From: a virus
Lineage: Duplodnaviria; Heunggongvirae; Uroviricota; Caudoviricetes
IMG/VR virus record: IMGVR_UViG_2778261541_000003
Strand: one strand, 5' to 3'
Length of the DNA: 8,059 bases
Part shown: positions 651 to 7,941 of the stretch, piece by piece
Layout of the letters: every line of letters starts with the position of its first letter
Numbering within the stretch: position 1 is the first letter of the stretch
Made by a program: the position numbers and the translations under genes
Notes under the pieces: model-generated
Seen by the model: the letters and a program-made list of their open reading frames with translations, nothing else
What the model was told of the DNA's origin: nothing
Databases searched by the model: none

Positions 651-1082
651 CTATTCAGGTATTTCAATTCCAAAACCATCTGCATCCCATGAGTTTTCAC
701 AGATGATGTAACCTAGTTCATTGAGCTTATTAAATGTTTTTTCAAAGATGATCTGGTAATCATTATCTGCAAGTGATTCCAGTTCAAGGTCATTAAGGTT
801 TATATAAAAACTTGTATGTCCAAGTGTTATTTTCTTATTGATTTCATTAAAAGTTCTTTTGAAAATAATATTTGATATTTCATGCCGTGCATTGTTTGCA
901 ATAATTTTTGCTTCATAAGCAGAAATTACGTCATCTTCATGAATATCTTTCAGAAAGCTGGTGTCAAGACGTTGTACTATTTCAGCGTTCATTGAGCGCT
1001 TATTGGCTTTTGCAGAAATTTCTATTTTTTCTTTTACTTCAACGGGAAGTCTGATCCTTAGTTGTGGATCTTCTCTGCTCAT
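651..1082 (-). CDS. mnt: Mnt-like ribbon-helix-helix (Arc/MetJ superfamily) repressor with an extra ~95-aa C-terminal domain of unknown function
   Basis: ORF track 651..1112 starts at TTG; in-frame ATG at 1082..1080 preceded by GGTGA. N-terminus MSREDPQLRIRLPVEVKEKIEISAKANKRSMNAEIVQRLD aligns closely with P22 Mnt as I recall it (MARDDPHFNFRMPMEVREKLKFRAEANGRSMNSELLQIV). Divergent from an arc-ant pair as in P22 immI. Confidence 0.8.
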   Translation of the reverse strand: MSREDPQLRIRLPVEVKEKIEISAKANKRSMNAEIVQRLDTSFLKDIHEDDVISAYEAKIIANNARHEISNIIFKRTFNEINKKITLGHTSFYINLNDLELESLADNDYQIIFEKTFNKLNELGYIICENSWDADGFGIEIPE

Positions 1083-1119
1083 GTTCTTCACCAAATATTG
1101 AGTTACTTGCAATGATTGA

Positions 1120-1188
1120 AGTATGCCTCACCGTGTGCTTGACATCAATGACGCACGGTGTGACAATTGTTTTGCCCCACGGTGGGGC
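1120..1188. promoter_or_regulatory. Divergent promoter/operator region between the mnt-like and arc-like genes
   Basis: Plus strand: -35 TTGACA 1139-1144, 17-bp spacer, -10 GACAAT 1162-1167. Minus strand: -35 TTGATG (rc of 1143-1148), 17-bp spacer, -10 CATACT (rc of 1120-1125). 15-bp perfect palindrome GCCCCACGGTGGGGC at 1174-1188 sits at the predicted rightward start site and shares the CCACGGTGG core with the P22 Mnt operator as I recall it. Inverted 7-mers CACCGTG (1129-1135) and CACGGTG (1154-1160) flank the overlapping -35 elements. Confidence 0.5.
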
Positions 1189-1202: not shown

Positions 1203-1370
1203 ATGCAAAAAGCAAAAGAGATGTGTCAACGACGAGTTCGTTTTCCGGACGATGTGAAGTTAGCTATTGAAAGAAATGGCGAAAAAGAATGCCGAAAGTT
1301 CAATACAGAGATTATCTATCAGCTGAGGAAAGTGTATGGACTCACTGGTGAGAAGAATAGCGTGGCATAA
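1203..1370 (+). CDS. arc: Arc-like ribbon-helix-helix transcriptional repressor (55 aa)
   Basis: ORF track 1167..1370 starts at TTG; in-frame ATG at 1203 has AAGGAG (1190-1195) 7 nt upstream. RRVRFPDDVKLAIERNGEKECRKFNTEIIYQLRK resembles the P22 Arc RHH fold (FNLRWPREV...ENGRSVNSEIYQRV). Size and position (immediately upstream of ant) match arc. Confidence 0.75.
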   Translation: MQKAKEMCQRRVRFPDDVKLAIERNGEKECRKFNTEIIYQLRKVYGLTGEKNSVA

Positions 1371-1442
1371 AACAGCGAAGCCCAACGGTGGCCAGACCGT
1401 CAGGGCTTCAGTATCGTAAAACTACGTATAGGAATTAACGAC
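1367..1442 (-). ncRNA. Candidate sar-like antisense RNA covering the ant ribosome-binding site
   Basis: Minus-strand sigma70-like promoter (-35 TTGATA, 17-bp spacer, -10 TATACT) predicts a start near 1441-1443. The transcript would be antisense to the ant SD (AGGAA 1430-1434) and end at a minus-strand hairpin GAAGCCC...GGGCTTC (1377-1409) followed by GCUGUUUUAU. Predicted length ~75 nt, comparable to P22 sar (~68 nt, from memory). Confidence 0.5.
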
Positions 1443-2387
1443 ATGACGAGTATAGCAACAGCGGTATCTACTATCAACGTGCCATTCCACGGCGCAGAAC
1501 TTTATGTTGTCAATCACAACGGAGAACCGTACACCCCAATGAAACCTATCGTTGAAGGCATGGGTATGGATTGGGCTTCACAGTTTACGAAAATGAAGCA
1601 GCGGTTTAAAACCTGCATTGTGAAAATCACAATGCAGCTTCCTGGGGATGAACAGCGCCGTGAGATTATTTGTTTGGCACTTCGCAAACTTGCTGGCTGG
1701 TTGCAAACCATCAGCCCTAACAAAGTCCGCCCTGAAATCCGCGACAAGGTAATCCAGTATCAGGAAGAGTGTGACGATGTTCTCTACGAGTACTGGACTA
1801 AAGGCCATGTGGTTAACCCACGCAAAGCTAAAAAGGCGTTGCCGGGTAAAATAACCACTGAACAGCAGGAAGCCATTAAACAACTCGTCATGAGTCGCGG
1901 TCAGTCTCTGCCAAAAGAAAAACAGGCTAAGGCGATGATCACCATGTGGTCGTCACTGAAATCTCATTTTGGCTGTTCGTACAAAGAAATTGATGAAGAT
2001 CAATTCGCCGAAGCGTTGTCTCTTGTTGCTCGGGTTCCGCTTGAAGGGGAGCATCTCCCTGCTGGATCTGCATCAGAGAATGATGAAGTGGCAGTCAAGA
2101 TGTTAGATGCGCTTCGTGAGGCAATTAAAACACAGACAAAATGTTATGGTTATCCGCTGAAGCCCGGCTACCGCAGTCTGATTCATTCGCCGTCTGGTGT
2201 TCTCGGCCTGACGGAGAACTCACTGCTGATGAATCTGCTTAACCAGTTACAGGACGACGGGCACGATGTATCGGGCGCGGCGGCGGAGCTGACCACCATG
2301 TTCTGCTACATCGTCGGTGTGAGCAAATGCCTGCGTGATATCCAGACCCACGCGGAGTACATCAACGACAAGGCTGGGTTCTTCTGA
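1443..2387 (+). CDS. ant: Phage antirepressor (Ant; P22-antirepressor-like N-terminal domain plus conserved C-terminal domain)
   Basis: 314-aa ORF; AGGAA 8 nt upstream of ATG. Follows arc as in immI. N-terminal region (...LAGWLQTISPNKVRPEIRDKVIQYQEECDDVLYEYWTKG) resembles the P22 antirepressor N-domain family as I recall it. C-terminal ~80 aa are shared with two other genes in the window. Confidence 0.88.
   Translation: MTSIATAVSTINVPFHGAELYVVNHNGEPYTPMKPIVEGMGMDWASQFTKMKQRFKTCIVKITMQLPGDEQRREIICLALRKLAGWLQTISPNKVRPEIRDKVIQYQEECDDVLYEYWTKGHVVNPRKAKKALPGKITTEQQEAIKQLVMSRGQSLPKEKQAKAMITMWSSLKSHFGCSYKEIDEDQFAEALSLVARVPLEGEHLPAGSASENDEVAVKMLDALREAIKTQTKCYGYPLKPGYRSLIHSPSGVLGLTENSLLMNLLNQLQDDGHDVSGAAAELTTMFCYIVGVSKCLRDIQTHAEYINDKAGFF
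1449..1477 (-). promoter_or_regulatory. Candidate sigma70 promoter for the sar-like antisense RNA
   Basis: -35 TTGATA = rc of 1472-1477; 17-bp spacer; -10 TATACT = rc of 1449-1454. Lies inside the first codons of ant. Confidence 0.5.
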
Positions 2388-2418
2388 CGGGCGGCGGCAC
2401 AGGGATGTGCCTTTAAAT
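2157..2418. repeat. Inverted repeat copy A (~260 bp, ~97% identical to rc of 3882-4141)
   Basis: Direct comparison: 2157-2418 matches the reverse complement of 3882-4141 with a handful of substitutions (e.g. cagtctgattcat vs cagcctgattcac; atcaacgacaaggctggg vs atcagcgacaaagcagga). Covers the last ~77 codons of ant plus its terminator. Confidence 0.9.
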
Positions 2419-2422
2419 AATT
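2396..2422 (+). terminator. Intrinsic terminator downstream of ant
   Basis: Hairpin GGCACA-GGGA-TGTGCC (2396-2411) followed by TTTAAATAATT. Confidence 0.55.
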
Positions 2423-2533
2423 CTGTACAGATTGCAGACTGTGGGTGAATAGCGTACTATTACCTCAAGGGTAAGAAAGCATTTTTAATCTTCCCTTCAA
2501 AACGCGTCCTGTAGCCAAACATGGGAGGACGAA

Positions 2534-3166
2534 ATGAGAACAAATACAACAAGAAAAGCGATGCCATACATTATCCCAGAAGCAGATTTCGATAGAAAAC
2601 TGAACATGTCTGAGAAGAACACTAGTCACACCGAAAGCTACTTAGCGAAAGGTGTGGTTGATTTCGTTCTTCCGGGATTCACAACACCTTATGGTTATCG
2701 CCTTGTAAAATCTTGTAATGGCGATCATTACAGAATGATTACTACCAGCGATACTCCAGAAACGGTGTATGCGGTTAAGTTAATCTTTCGGGAAGATATC
2801 GTCGAAGCCAAAAGAACATGTACGCAGATCATGGTATGGCGTACGCCTAATGTTATTCATGACCGTGCTGTTCATGGTTTGCCTCAGATTTTTTTTCAGT
2901 TCTTCCTAGAGCAATATGCGATCGTTGTATCTGATGAGCAACAAACAATCGATGGGAGGAGATTCTGGGAAAGAATGATTTCTTGGGCTATAAACACCCC
3001 GGGATATAATGTATACGTTTCAGATGGCTCTGAAGAAGATAGACCTCTTAGCTTCATGACATCATGGGATGATTTCTATAGCCAGTGGGCTGATTTCTGT
3101 TGGGGCAGTGATAAAGATGTGCATACCCACAGACTACTGGTTATAAGCAAAGATAAACTGCATTAA
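2534..3166 (+). CDS. Hypothetical protein (210 aa), cassette gene, no recognisable family
   Basis: ATG at 2534 with GGGAGGA SD 5 nt upstream; stop TAA 3164-3166; visibly lower GC than the flanking ant genes. Convergent with the 3187-3630 gene, sharing a bidirectional terminator. Confidence 0.7.
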   Translation: MRTNTTRKAMPYIIPEADFDRKLNMSEKNTSHTESYLAKGVVDFVLPGFTTPYGYRLVKSCNGDHYRMITTSDTPETVYAVKLIFREDIVEAKRTCTQIMVWRTPNVIHDRAVHGLPQIFFQFFLEQYAIVVSDEQQTIDGRRFWERMISWAINTPGYNVYVSDGSEEDRPLSFMTSWDDFYSQWADFCWGSDKDVHTHRLLVISKDKLH

Positions 3167-3169
3167 TAG

Positions 3170-3188
3170 AAGCCCGCGGCGCGGGCTT
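3170..3188. terminator. Bidirectional hairpin terminator between convergent cassette genes
   Basis: AAGCCCGC-ggc-GCGGGCTT perfect 8-bp GC-rich stem at 3170-3188, followed by TTCTTCTTCTTC on the plus strand; overlaps the stop codon of the minus-strand gene. Confidence 0.55.
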
Positions 3189-3630
3189 ATTCTTCTTCTT
3201 CATCATTAAAAAGCGGATTGTTGTTTCCATCTGATGAAAGGAAAGGTATGTGTTCTCTTGAAAATCCAACAATGACAATTTCATTATCATTTTTTGCATA
3301 ATGAATGCATTCATTAGAATGCATTCCGCCAGGGTTGAAATTTAAGTTAATGGTATAATTCTTAAATGTGTTTGGATACCATGTTGGCCCACAATGATAA
3401 TGCCAATAATTCTCTTGCTCATAATTGTCTGAGCCGGGAATTTTATCATGGTTATCATCAACCCACGAGGGCTTGTTTTTTCCAACAAGCGCCCTTCCAT
3501 TGGCAACATCCTCTAAAAACCTTTGTATGATTTTTATTTCATCATCAGTAAGGAAAGGTCCGTCTACAGCGAAAGGGGTGTTGCTTTCCCCATGTAGAAA
3601 ACTATTAGATATTCTAATGTTAAACTTCAA
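3187..3630 (-). CDS. Hypothetical protein (147 aa) with acidic C-terminal tail, no recognisable family; possible toxin or effector partner of the upstream small ORF
   Basis: ORF track 3187..3630. Start is TTG (rc of 3628-3630) with AGGAG SD 6 nt upstream; no in-frame ATG until residue ~103. Ends ...NDEEEE. Contains YWHYHCGPTWYP. Confidence 0.65.
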   Translation of the reverse strand: MKFNIRISNSFLHGESNTPFAVDGPFLTDDEIKIIQRFLEDVANGRALVGKNKPSWVDDNHDKIPGSDNYEQENYWHYHCGPTWYPNTFKNYTINLNFNPGGMHSNECIHYAKNDNEIVIVGFSREHIPFLSSDGNNNPLFNDEEEE

Positions 3631-3650
3631 GGAAAACTCCTGATGTGCTT

Positions 3651-3818
3651 CTATTTGGAGCGAAATGCCGCCTTGAAGTCGCTAAAAGATGTTCCTGTCT
3701 GGTAAACCATATCCTTGTCGCGCTCTTTGCTTGCGCGACCAAGCATAACTTTTCCAATGACATCCCAGCATTGCTTGGCTTGTTCATTGTGCTGAGTACG
3801 ATTTTTCAACGCTGTCAT
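3651..3818 (-). CDS. Small hypothetical protein (55 aa), first gene of a two-gene minus-strand operon; not in the ORF track (below its length cut-off)
   Basis: Hand translation of minus strand from ATG at 3818..3816: MTALKNRTQHNEQAKQCWDVIGKVMLGRASKERDKDMVYQTGTSFSDFKAAFRSK, stop at 3651-3653. Strong AGGAGG SD (rc of 3825-3830) 6 nt upstream. Stop lies 20 nt before the SD/TTG of the next gene. Confidence 0.45.
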   Translation of the reverse strand: MTALKNRTQHNEQAKQCWDVIGKVMLGRASKERDKDMVYQTGTSFSDFKAAFRSK

Positions 3819-3874
3819 ATCGCGCCTCCTTTACCTTTAAGGTAATATTACGCGAATCTACATCACATCGCCAA
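3819..3874 (-). promoter_or_regulatory. Candidate sigma70 promoter with palindromic operator for the 3651-3818 / 3187-3630 operon
   Basis: Minus strand: -35 TTGGCG (rc of 3869-3874), 18-bp spacer, -10 TAATAT (rc of 3845-3850), immediately followed by perfect 15-bp palindrome TTACCTTTAAGGTAA (3831-3845) over the predicted start site, then AGGAGG. Confidence 0.5.
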
Positions 3875-3879
3875 TGATT

Positions 3880-3903
3880 ATTTTAAAGGCACATCCCTGT
3901 GCC
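3880..3903 (-). terminator. Intrinsic terminator downstream of the second antirepressor (inside the repeat)
   Basis: Hairpin at 3888-3903 (GGCACA-loop-TGTGCC) followed on the minus strand by TTTAAAATAAT. Confidence 0.5.
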
Positions 3904-4141
3904 GCCGCCCGTCAGAAGAATCCTGCTTTGTCGCTGATGTACTCCGCGTGCGTCTGGATATCACGCAGGCATTTGCTCACACCGACGATGTAGCAGAACA
4001 TGGTGGTCAGCTCCGCCGCCGCGCCCGATACATCGTGCCCGTCGTCCTGTAACTGGTTAAGCAGATTCATCAGCAGTGAGTTCTCCGTCAGGCCGAGAAC
4101 ACCAGACGGCGAGTGAATCAGGCTGCGGTAGCCGGGCTTCA
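3882..4141. repeat. Inverted repeat copy B (partner of 2157-2418)
   Basis: Reverse complement matches copy A; covers the last ~77 codons of the second antirepressor plus its terminator hairpin. Confidence 0.9.
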
Positions 4142-4568
4142 GTGGGGCGCTGTATTCTTTTTTGTCTTCCAGCTTGATCGCCTCCATAATGGCGGGCATG
4201 AAGCCTGACAAGACCTTCTCCACTTTTGTTTCTTGTTGTCTTAAACGTTTCTCGCATTCAATGAAGTAGCGTCGCACCTGGCGACCTTTTTCGTTACGCT
4301 CGACCATCGCCAGCTCTTTGGCTGTATCAAGGGTGAGGTGGTACTCTTTGCGGTTGTGGCCGCCTCTACCAGATGTTTGCTTTCCCAAATTGGAAAGCAA
4401 AATATAGTCTTGATTTTCAATGAATTCGTATTCTGATATGCGATTTGTAATCCATGCTGCAAACACCTTTTTAACACCTAAAAAAGCGTGCAGATCGCGG
4501 GCATTACAAAGTAGGGCTGTTTCGTTAGATATAGTGCCGTTGAATACGGGGATGAGTTGAGCGTTCAT
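3912..4568 (-). CDS. Phage antirepressor, second copy: different N-terminal domain (Bro-N/ORF6N/Rha-like, tentative) fused to the same C-terminal domain as Ant
   Basis: 218-aa ORF; ATG at 4568..4566 with GGAGA SD (rc of 4576-4580). N-terminal part (...[33 protein letters not shown]...[32 protein letters not shown]) resembles phage antirepressor N-terminal families. C-terminal 77 aa are ~97% identical to Ant (1443-2387). Confidence 0.88.
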
Positions 4569-4596
4569 GATGGCGTCTCCACTTAGCGAATTACAT

Positions 4597-4804
4597 CACC
4601 ACCGCTGAGACCAATCAGATGGTGGTGAACTGAACGGAGTTGGTCTTACCGGCCTAAGTGGTACCGGCGTCCTTTCGGACCCCCATTCAGCCCACCATAA
4701 TTCTGGCATGACTGTGCTATACGCATAAAAAAACCACGTCTGGCGTGGTATGCGCCACTTAGTAATCCGGGAGACCAATCCCGGCACTGGATTTTGCCAG
4801 TGCC
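4597..4804 (-). other. Hairpin-rich untranslated leader upstream of the second antirepressor
   Basis: H1 at 4597-4627: CACCACC-g-CTGA-[gaccaa]-TCAG-at-GGTGGTG. H4 at 4767-4784: CCGGGA-[gaccaa]-TCCCGG, same hexaloop. H5 at 4783-4804: GGCACTGG-attttg-CCAGTGCC. No convincing ORF in this ~400 bp (track ORF 4596..4928 rejected). Confidence 0.45.
4726..4749 (-). terminator. Candidate intrinsic terminator or attenuator within the leader (minus strand)
   Basis: Minus-strand RNA ACCACG-CCAGA-CGUGGU followed by UUUUUUU (plus-strand A-run 4727-4733). Sits ~160 nt upstream of the second antirepressor start codon. Confidence 0.45.
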
Positions 4805-4839
4805 CGATTACTATGGCACAAGAGGAGTGCAATGTAAAT

Positions 4840-4948
4840 TTACCGCAAAGGTAATGATAAACGCGAAGAAATATTAAAATCAACCGTATTTGGTTGATTG
4901 CGTTTAACGCTTGATCACCTGAAAGCAAGATATTACCTTTAAGGTAAT
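4840..4948. promoter_or_regulatory. Two palindromic TTACC-N5-GGTAA operator-like sites
   Basis: Site 1 TTACC-gcaaa-GGTAA at 4840-4854. Site 2 is a perfect 17-bp palindrome ATTACCTTTAAGGTAAT at 4932-4948. Centres are ~94 bp apart. Site 2 lies ~20 bp upstream of the start of ORF 4968-5696 and at the distal end of the minus-strand leader. Confidence 0.5.
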
Positions 4949-4967
4949 GTTATTGTGAGGAAAAGCA

Positions 4968-5696
4968 ATGGAAGTTTTCTGGATAGTTGTTGGTGTGGTT
5001 GCGGTGATTATTTACGTTATCAACCAGAACAAGACTAAGATCTCTGATCGTACGGTCGTTAATCATAACAAAACGATAAAGACCGAAGATGGGGAGATAA
5101 CGATTAATCGTACACAGGTGATAGAACACACCTCTACTCAGTTTCAAAAAACTGGAGGTAATGCGCCTAATATTTCCGCACCTCCTGCTTATGATAGTGC
5201 GGTAATCCAGACATATTATAAACAGCAGGAGTTAGCAAAAGAGAGGCAACTGATTCAGCCAAAGCCGTTTACAGCTGAGCTTCCACCTGGAGTGTCAACG
5301 CGTCCGGCATATCATGGAAGATTCCCTGGTGATGACATATCGTCTCAGTCATCTAAAAAAGCACCTCAGGCAGTATCAGAGCCAGCAAGAATACCTTCTG
5401 TATCGCCGCCAAAAGAAGAATCAGCTAACAGAGTTTCAAGTGGTAGCAAGCAGTGCTTGCGATGCAGAATAAACCTACCATATGAAAAATTCAGGAAATC
5501 GTCAAAAAATCCAGATGGATTGACTAAGTGGTGTGCAAGGTGTCTCGATGGCCCAAAGAATACACGCCATATGAAGTGGTGCCCAATTTGTAATGTCCGC
5601 AGAAAACGAACAAGCTTTTACCCTAATAATCAAAATGCGGATGGCTTAATGGCATGGTGCAAAACGTGCTGGGACGAGCACAAAGCGAAACGATAG
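4968..5696 (+). CDS. Membrane-anchored protein with Pro/Ser-rich linker and C-terminal tandem CxxC-N20-WCxxC (zinc-ribbon-like) motifs; function unknown
   Basis: 242-aa ORF; GAGG 7 nt upstream of ATG. N-terminal TM helix MEVFWIVVGVVAVIIYVI followed by NQNKTK (positive-inside rule suggests a cytoplasmic C-domain). Two Cys motifs: CLRCRINLPYEKFRKSSKNPDGLTKWCARC and CPICNVRRKRTSFYPNNQNADGLMAWCKTC. Terminator follows. Confidence 0.75.
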   Translation: MEVFWIVVGVVAVIIYVINQNKTKISDRTVVNHNKTIKTEDGEITINRTQVIEHTSTQFQKTGGNAPNISAPPAYDSAVIQTYYKQQELAKERQLIQPKPFTAELPPGVSTRPAYHGRFPGDDISSQSSKKAPQAVSEPARIPSVSPPKEESANRVSSGSKQCLRCRINLPYEKFRKSSKNPDGLTKWCARCLDGPKNTRHMKWCPICNVRRKRTSFYPNNQNADGLMAWCKTCWDEHKAKR

Positions 5697-5720
5697 GCCG
5701 CTCTTGCGGCCTTTAAATTT
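5696..5720 (+). terminator. Intrinsic terminator after the Cys-rich membrane protein gene
   Basis: GGCCGC-TCTT-GCGGCC (5696-5711) followed by TTTAAATTT; stem overlaps the stop codon TAG 5694-5696. Confidence 0.6.
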
Positions 5721-5976
5721 ACCGGGTTTGTTTTCGTAATTGTTCGGCACAATAGTCGAGATGTGTTTGCAGATCCCGCATAGACATCTGTGAGCTGGTG
5801 ACGTAGTTAATCAGTGCAGTCAGTTCGGCAAGTGGGCCATCGACATTAAATCCATCCTTATCGAGATCCCGGAGTAATTTCATCAAGTGCGATCCCTCCA
5901 CCAGTGACCTGACGCCTCCCGGCGTGTGAATCCTTTCGGTAAATCCGTCTTCCAGTGGATAGTGATACTGCTGCAT
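5719..5976 (-). CDS. Small stand-alone antirepressor C-terminal-domain protein (85 aa), candidate SOS-inducible mini-antirepressor
   Basis: ORF track 5719..5994 starts at TTG; in-frame ATG at 5976..5974 with GGAGA SD 7 nt upstream. PLEDGFTERIHTPGGVRSLVEGSHLMKLLRDLDKDGFNVDGPLAELTALINYVTSSQMSMRDLQTHLDY aligns over its length with the shared C-terminal domain of the two larger antirepressors ([69 protein letters not shown]). LexA box 20 bp upstream. Confidence 0.8.
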   Translation of the reverse strand: MQQYHYPLEDGFTERIHTPGGVRSLVEGSHLMKLLRDLDKDGFNVDGPLAELTALINYVTSSQMSMRDLQTHLDYCAEQLRKQTR

Positions 5977-5995: not shown

Positions 5996-6015
5996 AACTG
6001 TATAAATATACAGTA
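5996..6015. promoter_or_regulatory. LexA (SOS) box
   Basis: AACTGTATAAATATACAGTA at 5996-6015 is CTGT-N8-ACAG with an AT-rich spacer, 18/20 match to the E. coli consensus TACTGTATATATATACAGTA. A TTGATA -35-like hexamer abuts it on the minus-strand upstream side. It lies 20 nt upstream of the 5976 start codon. Confidence 0.8.
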
Positions 6016-6051
6016 TCAAATAATTTGTTTGCTATCCAGCACGTTTTGCGA

Positions 6052-6118
6052 ATCACCTGAAAGGTAATATCTGTTCGTATTTATGGGTTATCTATCCATA
6101 TATGGTTTTTAAGGTAAT
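6052..6118 (+). promoter_or_regulatory. Repeated motifs upstream of the tail-fibre gene (ATCACCTGAAAG plus two AAGGTAAT half-sites)
   Basis: ATCACCTGAAAG-GTAATAT at 6052-6069 (TCACC-tgaaa-GGTAA, imperfect palindrome) and TTTTTAAGGTAATAG at 6106-6120. Same motif family as 3831-3845, 4840-4854 and 4932-4948. Confidence 0.4.
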
Positions 6119-6171
6119 AGAATAACCGGATATGCGGCGCAACGGGTGCTGCTACTATCTGGAGATTTAAC

Positions 6172-7941
6172 ATGACGGTCTCAACCGAAGTTGACCACAA
6201 CGAATACACAGGTAACGGTGTTACAACGGCATTCCCTTATACCTTCAGGATTTTCCAGAAATCTGATTTAGTAGTGCAGGTTGTTGACCTGAACGAGAAC
6301 ATCACAGAGCTGATTCTTGATACTGATTACATAGTCACTGGTGCGGGAGGGTATAACGGCGGCAATGTAATTCTGTCGAAGGCGTTGGCTAACGGTTATC
6401 AGATTTCTATATCAAGAGAGCTACCGGTTACGCAGGATACCGATCTGCGCAACCAGGGTAAGTTCTTCGCTGAGGTGCATGAAGACGCATTCGATAAACT
6501 GACGATGCTGATCCAGCAGGTTCGCAGTTGGTTTGCCTTGGCGCTGCGCAAGCCATCAACCATCGCTAACTGGTACGACGCGCTGGGGAATTACATTCGC
6601 AACCTGCGCGACCCACGAGACCCGCAGGATGCTGCCACTAAAAATTATGTAGACACGATTAGTAACAACAACTATCTGCACACGTTAAGGGTTCCAGAGT
6701 CATTTACGCGGCAACTCCCTCCTGCTGCAGAACGTGCAAATATGATCCATGCATATGATTATGCAGGTGAGTCCATTATGGTCTTGCCTGAGAGCGGTAG
6801 TGCAGCAGATGTTCTGTTATTGCTGGCGCAACCTGACGGGCTTAAGAGGATTGGCACAAAAGTTAATTACGGTATACCGGTTGGATCTACTTTAACCGAT
6901 GGCGTCACTTTTTCTTTTGATAAGGATAAAGGTTGGCTGAGAATTGGTGGTGCCGATCTCCTACCACTTGACGATGAAAAGAACTTCTGGAGAGGCTTGC
7001 CTACACCGAGAAATTCATGGTGTAACCCGGCTCTTATCGGTGATTACTCAGTATCTTTTAACAGAAACGGTGCGTCATTCGCGGTATACGCCACAACTTT
7101 CGGGCATGACTGCGTTACGTACGGCGCGGCATCTATTGCCGGTGGTGCTGGTTCTGCCACTGGGGACCCAGATCATATTACCTCACCAAATGCTGAGGGG
7201 TACTGCTCTTTTGCATTTGGGAAAAATGTCATTGCTCTTGGAGCAAAATCTGCCGCATTCTGTGAAGAAACGGAAGCGCTTTCAAGGGCGGCTTTTGCAA
7301 CAGGTTATTATACACAAGCCAGACCGGGATACACTACAGACCCCGGCGGGGTTGCAAGTGATGGCATTGGTGCGGCGGCCATTGGATATCGAACTCGCGC
7401 GGCAGGAGATGGCTCTTTTGCTGTAGGTAAGAATATTCAGGCTTATGGTGGTTCGATTGCGATCGGGTGCGGCACTGATGAAGATAACCCAGCAGTCAAT
7501 CCACATAAAGACTCAGTGATGCTGTTTGCAAAATCGCTTATTCCAGGTATATCCGTTGTACCTGGTGGCGGTGGGCCGGAGGAACCATCGCGTGTAGGGG
7601 GGCACACAAAATACCCTAAAGAAATAGTGGATGTAGTACTGGAGGGAGGGGGCCGCGCAGCCATCAGAATACCAGGGATAGGAACTGGTACGATCTTGCT
7701 GCAAGGGACAGATAACGACGGCAATGCACTTTCTATCGCGTCGCTTGAATGGACAAGCGGAAACGGAGGTAGTGCTGTTGGTTCGTTGAAAATAAACATG
7801 AACAACGACGCACCATGCATTGAATTTCTGGAAGATGGCAAGGTGGTTTTGAAGAACGTAAAAACGTTTGAGGAGATAAACGGCGCCCCCGCGGGCACCA
7901 TTTATAAGGATGCTTCAAACTTCCTTAAAATTGTTGTTTAA
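6172..7941 (+). CDS. Tail fibre / tail spike protein: T7 gp17-like N-terminal adaptor domain with Gly/Ala-rich repeat-containing C-terminal region
   Basis: 589-aa ORF; GGAGA 7 nt upstream of ATG. N-terminus (EYTGNGVTTAFPYTFRIFQKSDLVVQVVD...YIRNLRDPRDPQDAATKNYVD) resembles the conserved N-terminal domain of T7 gp17-type tail fibres. C-terminal half has repeats such as CSFAFGKNVIALGAKSAAF and GSFAVGKNIQAYGGSIAIG that resemble YadA-head/Hep_Hag-type beta-roll repeats. Confidence 0.88.
   Translation: MTVSTEVDHNEYTGNGVTTAFPYTFRIFQKSDLVVQVVDLNENITELILDTDYIVTGAGGYNGGNVILSKALANGYQISISRELPVTQDTDLRNQGKFFAEVHEDAFDKLTMLIQQVRSWFALALRKPSTIANWYDALGNYIRNLRDPRDPQDAATKNYVDTISNNNYLHTLRVPESFTRQLPPAAERANMIHAYDYAGESIMVLPESGSAADVLLLLAQPDGLKRIGTKVNYGIPVGSTLTDGVTFSFDKDKGWLRIGGADLLPLDDEKNFWRGLPTPRNSWCNPALIGDYSVSFNRNGASFAVYATTFGHDCVTYGAASIAGGAGSATGDPDHITSPNAEGYCSFAFGKNVIALGAKSAAFCEETEALSRAAFATGYYTQARPGYTTDPGGVASDGIGAAAIGYRTRAAGDGSFAVGKNIQAYGGSIAIGCGTDEDNPAVNPHKDSVMLFAKSLIPGISVVPGGGGPEEPSRVGGHTKYPKEIVDVVLEGGGRAAIRIPGIGTGTILLQGTDNDGNALSIASLEWTSGNGGSAVGSLKINMNNDAPCIEFLEDGKVVLKNVKTFEEINGAPAGTIYKDASNFLKIVV

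Follow-up and report, generated by a model that had tools for sequence, protein, structure and literature searches.

Why a single prophage should encode the same small protein domain three times within one locus is the question raised by an 8,059-nucleotide (nt) stretch of viral DNA (Caudoviricetes; IMG/VR record IMGVR_UViG_2778261541_000003), referred to here as the window. An earlier note, made from the letters alone, had pointed out that one C-terminal module occurs on three open reading frames (ORFs), behind two different N-terminal domains and once by itself; these genes are called ant1, ant2 and ant3 in what follows. The window comes from an E. coli prophage belonging to the epsilon15 / phiV10 / TL-2011b group (genus Uetakevirus) and covers its accessory immunity region, with virion genes on one side and the tailspike gene on the other. 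The answer proposed here is that the module, of about 80 amino acids (aa), is probably the antirepressor effector of this phage group, encoded thrice behind different locks. Large antirepressors (P22 Ant, P1 Ant and the Bro-N/AntA types) are very common, and the part of them that disables a repressor is mostly unknown. A solved homologue of the module provides a testable assignment, in which the C-terminal domain binds the repressor Rep and the N-terminal domain does something else. The layout would then be that of one prophage wiring three separate signals to a single switch.

The shared module and the Ant protein of phage SPC32H

All three ORFs were found where the earlier note had placed them (Table 1). 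For ant3, the start assumed in that note, ATG 5976, is the likely one, with the mechanical ORF call beginning upstream at TTG 5994. The C-terminal domains of the three proteins align without internal gaps, share 32 invariant residues and contain every motif that had been listed. Their alignment is significant, with ant3 and ant1 being 43% identical over 76 aa (BLASTP E=1e-16), and the observation of a shared module is confirmed. Two of its details need adjusting. Identity between ant3 and the other copies was put at about 45% and measures 40-43%. The copies in ant1 and ant2, moreover, are not independent occurrences: they are one inverted DNA repeat, and their modules of about 80 aa differ at a single residue. 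The window thus holds two types of module, a large one in two copies and a small one in a single copy, with a similarity far above chance. Across 18 E. coli copies, the ratio of nonsynonymous to synonymous polymorphism (pN/pS) is 0.048 over the whole module, which is under strong purifying selection.

The earlier note did not recognize that this module is a solved and named protein. A phmmer search pairs the product of ant3 with chain E of PDB 5D50 ("Anti-repressor protein") over 83 residues (E=1.9e-46), and its identity to the ant gene product of Salmonella phage SPC32H is 86.7% (tblastn). The C-terminal part of ant2 finds this chain as well (E=4.2e-14). PHROG 450, labelled "unknown function", matches all three copies with E-values from 7e-48 (ant3) to 1e-35, covering aa 232-312 of ant1 (E=2.5e-35). 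Neither Pfam nor NCBIfam has a model matching the module in the C-termini of ant1 and ant2 or in ant3; a weak ORF6C match (E=0.036) falls in the middle region of ant1, outside the module. By similarity over the whole domain, the module is a relative of the SPC32H-type antirepressor. Most of the E. coli phage and RefSeq records examined give the small ant gene as "hypothetical".

SPC32H Ant was crystallised in complex with the phage repressor Rep (PDB 5D50). According to published accounts of this complex, four Ant chains form a tetramer that binds two dimers of Rep and takes the Rep tetramer apart (PMC9638917), with Ant contacting the C-terminal tetramerisation domain of Rep (PMC9986798). If the fused modules act on Rep as well, the main argument for it would be their tight co-occurrence with this repressor. 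Among 50,697 phage records searched, the large-type module is found in 32, small Ant in 35 and the Rep family in 36, and an SPC32H-type Rep is encoded in every one of the 32 that carry the large-type module. In TL-2011b the match to Rep (5D50_A) is gp10 (E=6.6e-42). When three phage groups are compared, identities of the large-type module and of Rep are 96-98% and 98-100% in the first, 78% and 78% in the second, and 54% and 45% in the third. The proposal of a common effector or target-binding unit is supported by the homology of the module to SPC32H Ant and by the presence of Rep in all these records. Independent experimental support comes from phage ZX5, where ORF4 ("anti-repressor") consists of Bro-N followed by the same module. 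When it was overexpressed, lysogen numbers fell about 100-fold and transcription of the repressor by 75%; of ORF4, that paper describes the Bro N-terminal domain only (PMC9782041), and the small ant gene is annotated hypothetical in the ZX5 record.

A word-indexed homologue search with the bare module returned 21 short proteins and no fusions. The fusions were recovered by an exhaustive profile search of 1.84 billion representatives, which gave 62 module proteins at E<=1e-3. The family is a small one, from Enterobacterales (Escherichia, Salmonella, Klebsiella, Raoultella, Enterobacter, Yersinia, Rahnella and Sodalis). Within E. coli, about 930-980 of 5,426 complete genomes (~1 in 6) match a module-containing query, and the protein combining AntA with the module occurs on several hundred contigs. 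Shiga toxin (Stx) phages were considered as further carriers and rejected: the module is absent from Stx and other lambdoid phages, though other parts of the window are shared, with more than 100 Stx phage records matching these non-module parts. In three Klebsiella chromosomes (L011-L013, positions 6001-6288), a 95-aa large-type module stands alone, its start lying within what is the linker region of the fused proteins. It is found just 3' of an AlpA-like gene, beside a HicA-toxin gene and a DUF1902 gene. No phage structural genes are in view around it, and it may be part of a satellite or of what is left of a prophage.

Control elements of the three genes

Each of the three modules sits behind a different control, and those named in the earlier note (Arc/Mnt and antisense RNA for ant1, a structured leader for ant2, LexA for ant3) were all recovered (Table 1). 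The repressor operators within the locus and the direct placement of ant2 behind its leader had been missed.

Table 1. Features of the ant locus in window coordinates; the final column gives extent, position or evidence.
Feature	Coordinates	Strand	Description
Mnt-like repressor gene	651-1112	-	Pfam Arc PF03869, aa 12-56, E=1.2e-14
Pant-like sigma-70 promoter	1139-1167	+	TTGACA-17-GACAAT; 10/12 matches with TG (promoter scan)
Arc-like small repressor ORF	1203-1370	+	55 aa, directly 5' of ant1; from position and TL-2011b annotation
sar-type antisense RNA	1374-1441	-	Rfam RF00262, 45.2 bits (gathering score 43), full-length 1-68/68
sar terminator	1398-1379	-	terminator scan
ant1	1443-2387	+	314 aa: P22_AR_N aa 12-123, middle region, module aa ~235-314 (nt 2145-2387)
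Psar-like promoter	1477-1449	-	promoter scan
Left repeat arm	2154-2417		module-coding DNA plus 30 nt beyond ant1 stop
Operator-type palindrome TTACCTCAAGGGTAA	2460-2474		head of cargo gene A
Cargo gene A	2534-3166	+	210 aa, downstream of ant1, same direction; PHROG 1349, E=3e-113, unknown function
Two-way terminator hairpin	3170-3188		between convergent cargo genes; terminator scan
Cargo gene B	3187-3630	-	147 aa, downstream of ant2, same direction
Cargo gene C	3620-3787	-	55 aa, downstream of ant2, same direction
Operator-type palindrome TTACCTTTAAGGTAA	3831-3845		head of cargo genes C and B, inside invertible segment
Right repeat arm	3882-4145		inverted-repeat scan
ant2	3912-4568	-	218 aa: AntA aa 22-92, linker, module aa ~137-218 (nt 3912-4160)
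b2-like target CTAAGTGG	4579-4586	-	runs into GGAG Shine-Dalgarno of ant2
ant2 structured leader	4618-4816	-	C4 4618-4702; IsrK-like 4727-4803; a1/b1 targets 4764-4816
IsrK terminator	4749-4733	-	terminator scan
Promoter-like site of ant2 leader	4838-4810	-	promoter scan
Operator-type palindromes	4840-4854, 4933-4947		flank ant2 leader promoter, upstream of divergent ORF 4968-5696
ant3	5719-5976	-	stand-alone 85-aa module, ~87% identical homologue of SPC32H Ant
LexA box CTGTATAAATATACAG	5998-6013		22 nt upstream of ant3 ATG, overlaps likely promoter
Operator-type palindrome, one mismatch	6053-6067		between ant3 and tailspike gene, upstream of ant3

The bare module, ant3, resembles the SPC32H Rep-Ant system (Kim & Ryu 2013; Kim et al. 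2016; PDB 5D50, 5D4Z) in its size, its position next to the tailspike gene and its LexA box. Its identity to the Ants of Salmonella phages is 83-87%, and a Rep homologue is present in phages related to that of the window. The LexA motif CTGT-N8-ACAG occurs a single time in the window, as a perfect copy, against 0.07 expected, and an equivalent box lies upstream of epsilon15 gp19; none is found at ant1 or ant2. The locus also differs from SPC32H. The Salmonella phage records searched match the module once only, as small Ant, whereas the window fuses the same domain to P22_AR_N and AntA under two further controls, the fused version being only about 40% identical to the solved Ant. In its logic, ant3 can also be compared with 186 Tum, N15 AntC and Gifsy GfoA/GfhA (PMC3121763), small LexA-controlled proteins that bind and inactivate a non-cleavable repressor; this likeness is one of logic only, and no sequence relationship is claimed.

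A different arrangement precedes ant2, whose N-terminal domain is AntA (Pfam E=4.2e-26). Its leader matches the Rfam families C4 with 61.2 bits (gathering score 45) and isrK with 67.7 bits (gathering score 50), together with a c4-a1b1 match of 39.9 bits, below the gathering score of 46.7. The C4 loop CCACTTAG (4654-4661) is complementary to the target at the ant2 ribosome-binding site, and a second target (b1) lies at 4755-4762. The 8-mer of the target or its complement occurs four times against 0.20 expected, with two copies of the target itself on the leader transcript. This organisation is similar to the immI region of P1/P7 (c4, icd, ant) and to isrK-orf45-anrP of Gifsy-1 (PMC4825925), with C4/IsrK elements 5' of an antirepressor gene and repeated targets complementary to the C4 loop, one of them over a ribosome-binding site. 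It departs from both in that ant2 is not preceded by an ORF of the icd/orf45 type: none is found between the end of C4 (4618) and the ant2 ATG (4568), which are 50 nt apart. The target is instead located directly on the ant2 Shine-Dalgarno sequence, 50 nt 3' of C4, and the C-terminus of the Ant protein is an SPC32H-type module.

The setting of ant1 is that of P22 immI (mnt, arc, ant, sar). An Mnt-like gene with an Arc-family ribbon-helix-helix N-terminus, whose orthologue RefSeq names "Arc family DNA-binding protein", is divergent from the arc/ant1 operon. The 55-aa ORF that precedes ant1 has no Pfam Arc match; its TL-2011b orthologue is annotated "Arc-like repressor". The sar-type RNA spans the arc-ant1 spacer and the ant1 ribosome-binding site and stops 1 nt before the ant1 ATG, and P22_AR_N starts the protein as it does P22 Ant (Pfam E=9.6e-45). 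Unlike P22, ant1 carries the SPC32H-type module in place of P22_AR_C, to which Pfam gives no match at E<=0.1, and the window's phage is not P22-like. An inverted repeat CACCGTG...CACGGTG spans the Pant-like promoter (1128-1190 region), with the palindrome CCCCACGGTGGGG just downstream, and these could be the Mnt/Arc operators.

Superimposed on two of these units are palindromes of the form TTACC-N5-GGTAA, of which the window has five (0.20 expected) and TL-2011b 14 (0.73 expected), including its rep/cro intergenic region. In the epsilon15 record, the motif carries the annotation of a repressor binding site, and one such site is in the gp19-gp20 intergenic region, the counterpart of the stretch between ant3 and the tailspike gene. 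A scan of the window found none in the ant1 unit. The presence of such repressor-operator-type palindromes flanking ant2, ant3 and the cargo genes is new here.

N-terminal domains, the inverted repeat and its cargo

Besides P22_AR_N and AntA in the window, the module follows Bro-N, Phage_pRha and ORF6N in longer members of the family from relatives, which makes five N-domain families. The earlier note regarded the N-terminal domains as sensors or regulatory domains feeding the module. This role is unsupported. Promoters, antisense RNAs and LexA regulate the genes themselves, and regulation does not pass through the N-domains; they are instead the known domain-swapping domains of the "Bro network", which accounts citing Iyer et al. 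2002 describe as thought to bind DNA (PMC10111431; PMC9043618). Apart from the role given to these domains, the interpretation in that note was largely right and can be considered partly supported.

The closest architectural precedent is Listeria AriS, in which a constant KilAC C-terminal domain is found with AntA, Bro-N or pRha and each half is separately active, the N-terminal AntA domain of the family having its own phage-specific activity (PMC9043618). As in the window, a constant C-domain thus alternates between N-domains, and in satellites such genes are associated with C4/IsrK immunity RNAs. The constant domain of AriS is ANT/KilAC, an inhibitor of the SOS response, in contrast to the SPC32H-type Ant of the window. 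The latter stands outside the ten Pfam families that define the network (PMC10111431), and no Pfam or NCBIfam match links the module to the C-terminal partners described for it (ANT/KilAC, P22_AR_C, ORF11CD3 and others). Since all five N-domain families belong to the Bro network, the principle of shuffling is known, and what is new is the membership of the C-domain.

How the shuffling takes place is suggested by the DNA. Because ant1 and ant2 converge, their module-coding DNA forms an inverted repeat of 264 nt (97% identical), which runs 30 nt past each stop codon. That these two copies are a recombining repeat was not noticed earlier. We compared nine related loci. At the position of ant1, L002, L008 and L010 have the same module without a difference in 253 nt, yet it stands behind P22_AR_N in the first two and behind Bro-N in the third, which shows directly that the domain shuffling proposed in the earlier note is real. 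When ant1, module and cargo are used together as a query, similarity ends exactly at the 5' edge of the module wherever module and cargo follow AntA or Bro-N.

The segment between the arms (2154-4145) is present in both orientations among complete E. coli genomes. Positions 4593-6113 of L002 correspond to 5112-3593 of L006 in reverse (98.5% identical) with collinear flanks, and the same three cargo proteins have opposite order and strand in the two loci. One junction of ant1, module and cargo occurs in 25 complete genomes, and two have its inverted form. With no invertase gene present, ordinary homologous recombination is inferred. The module DNA is thus the crossover site both for the exchange of N-domains and for the inversion or exchange of cargo. 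An inverted repeat whose recombination inverts and exchanges cargo between E. coli genomes is new here, and it illustrates how DNA that encodes a conserved domain can serve as the crossover point for domain shuffling and accessory-gene turnover.

Cargo varies among the loci (YafO toxin, DUF4760 or proteins of unknown function). Gene A of the window lies in L008 behind a Bro-N ant gene, in opposite orientation. The B/C region matches PHROG 5954 (E=6.5e-74, unknown function) and a stretch of L002 that carries WP_000671196 and WP_000125783 (99.7% DNA match). Positions 2154-3191 equal L008 in reverse (98.7%), and 3170-4854 equal L002 directly (99.7%). The cargo is a mosaic, its halves joined at the two-way terminator between the convergent genes. 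Its genes were considered as known defence systems and rejected, as there was no PADLOC, Pfam or NCBIfam match.

Systematic gene conversion between the two large-type copies of one genome was considered as well and does not fit: they differ on average at 10.9 of 253 nt, versus 9.0 for copies at the same position in different genomes. In L009, both module copies share a rare Thr-to-Ala change (ELATMF) unseen in the other eight loci, which suggests occasional gene conversion between the repeat arms. Exchange between copies is seen in these two cases, the inverted L006 and L009. A further variation is found in L010 (1850-5090, E. coli UTME-12), where both convergent ant genes are of the Bro-N type, the left one standing behind a second, 80% similar C4/IsrK-like leader and the P22_AR_N gene being reduced to an inverted fragment. 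The layout of two convergent ant genes is kept there despite the replaced left regulatory unit.

Readings of the locus and its flanking genes

If the module is the effector, the three genes would be turned on by different events. The ant3 protein, as the bare module behind a LexA box, would be the induction trigger that DNA damage turns on, as in SPC32H. The ant2 gene, with AntA before its module, would be held off by Rep operators and by pairing of the C4 RNA loop with its ribosome-binding site, and may reinforce induction once Rep begins to fail. With its P22_AR_N domain and its P22-type Mnt/Arc/sar unit, ant1 would have another use. P22 and P1 Ant are anti-immunity functions of an incoming phage. 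Likewise, an incoming phage would express ant1 and ant2 where Mnt/Arc/sar or C4 immunity is lacking, and could defeat the resident Rep. The N-terminal domains would be interchangeable Bro network domains with an activity separate from that of the module, new combinations arising by homologous recombination inside the conserved module DNA. The homology, the domain arrangements, the RNA and operator motifs, the inversions and the co-occurrence with Rep are observed, whereas the binding of Rep by the fused modules and the roles given to ant1 and ant2 are inferred.

A more ambitious version of this scheme is doubtful, and we put it forward only tentatively. In it, one Rep-binding domain is the output of a three-input circuit, in which DNA damage acting through LexA would turn on ant3, loss of Rep or of the C4 immunity RNA would release ant2, and loss of Mnt/Arc/sar immunity would release ant1. 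Through the Rep operators at ant2 and at the cargo, induction would feed back positively on itself and become irreversible. The module DNA would act as a portable recombination site that swaps N-domain and regulatory cassettes and flips or exchanges cargo for readthrough from either ant operon. Leaving this version aside, the parts of the locus are already known singly (SPC32H Ant, P22 immI, P1 immI/IsrK, the LexA box and Bro-network shuffling). New are the link among them, the way in which three genes of a single locus converge on one effector, and the recombination of the inverted repeat.

Other explanations can be given for the same locus. In the large proteins, the module could be a tetramerisation scaffold only, the activity being carried by the N-terminal and middle domains and Rep not being the target. 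Small Ant is indeed tetrameric (PMC9638917), so oligomerisation could be what the module contributes; the N-domains occur widely with other C-terminal domains (PHROG 524 and 5817 match the N-terminal parts only), and the AntA domain of AriS is active by itself (PMC9043618). The large-type module, only 40% identical to the solved Ant, would also allow for this. However, it is found exclusively in phages with an SPC32H-type Rep, while the N-domains are far more widespread. The low pN/pS extends over the entire module and not the helical core alone, and small Ant houses tetramerisation and Rep binding in the same 86 residues. A mere scaffold is thus unlikely. We regard it as quite unlikely, too, that the large-type module targets another repressor, be it the Rep of a relative or that of a different prophage, with ant1 and ant2 serving in prophage cross-talk or as weapons. 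The fall of its identity along with that of Rep in the three comparable phage groups fits a cognate pair, and ZX5 ORF4 acted on its own phage (PMC9782041), even if cross-prophage antirepressors are documented for Gifsy/Fels and P22 Ant (PMC3121763), two module types only 40% identical reside within one genome, the conservation of small Ant does not follow Rep divergence, and in a Klebsiella island devoid of phage structural genes a lone large-type module sits beside an AlpA gene. Finally, a recent functionless duplication or an assembly artefact with decaying copies would agree with the 97% DNA identity of copies 1 and 2, with the frameshifted copy of phiV10 and with the fact that in no complete E. 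coli genome is 80% or more of the window found at a single place. This explanation is largely refuted and highly improbable, given that the layout of two convergent ant genes recurs in many independent complete genomes, that the copies examined for selection are intact and under purifying selection, and that a module-containing query and the AntA-module protein find as many E. coli genomes and contigs as reported above.

Several points weigh against the fused module being a Rep-directed antirepressor. The window stops short of the rep gene, and it is relatives that point to the presence of Rep. At 40% identity to small Ant, the large-type module could have a different specificity or a role in oligomerisation only. 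The ZX5 test used the full-length protein and gave a partial effect only. In phiV10 (L003, 3012-3691), the Bro-N/module gene is frameshifted within the module, and since this phage is viable the large form is dispensable. An AlphaFold prediction of full-length ant2 from a 20-sequence alignment has a mean predicted local distance difference test score (pLDDT) of 43, and promoter-like matches are no commoner in the promoter scan than in shuffled sequence. Small Ant, moreover, retains 83-87% identity when E. coli and Salmonella phages are compared, although their Reps are only about 42% identical. In Klebsiella phages, the Reps are at a similar distance (45%) but the Ants only 60-64% identical. 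This uncoupled divergence, with no one-to-one tracking, does not support a simple co-evolution of small Ant with Rep.

Three other ORFs of the window may be mentioned. On the minus strand at 51-608, adjoining the end of the virion gene block, is a 185-aa ORF with 33% GC and a hydrophobic N-terminal segment; it has no family match and looks like an acquired accessory gene. Between ant2 and ant3, on the plus strand (4968-5696), a 242-aa ORF has a hydrophobic N-terminus and two C-terminal Cys-rich repeats with a weak match to endonuclease VII / HNH-type families (PHROG 6762). L002 and L009, nearly identical in other respects, lack this ORF, which points to an insertion or deletion of about 0.86 kb, and an operator palindrome lies about 20 nt upstream of it. 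The tailspike gene (6172-7941, plus strand) has its first ~180 to ~480 nt in common with epsilon15-group phages and then diverges, the similarity stopping near 6347 or 6650 according to the phage compared. This pattern fits a conserved particle-binding N-terminus joined to an exchangeable receptor-binding part.

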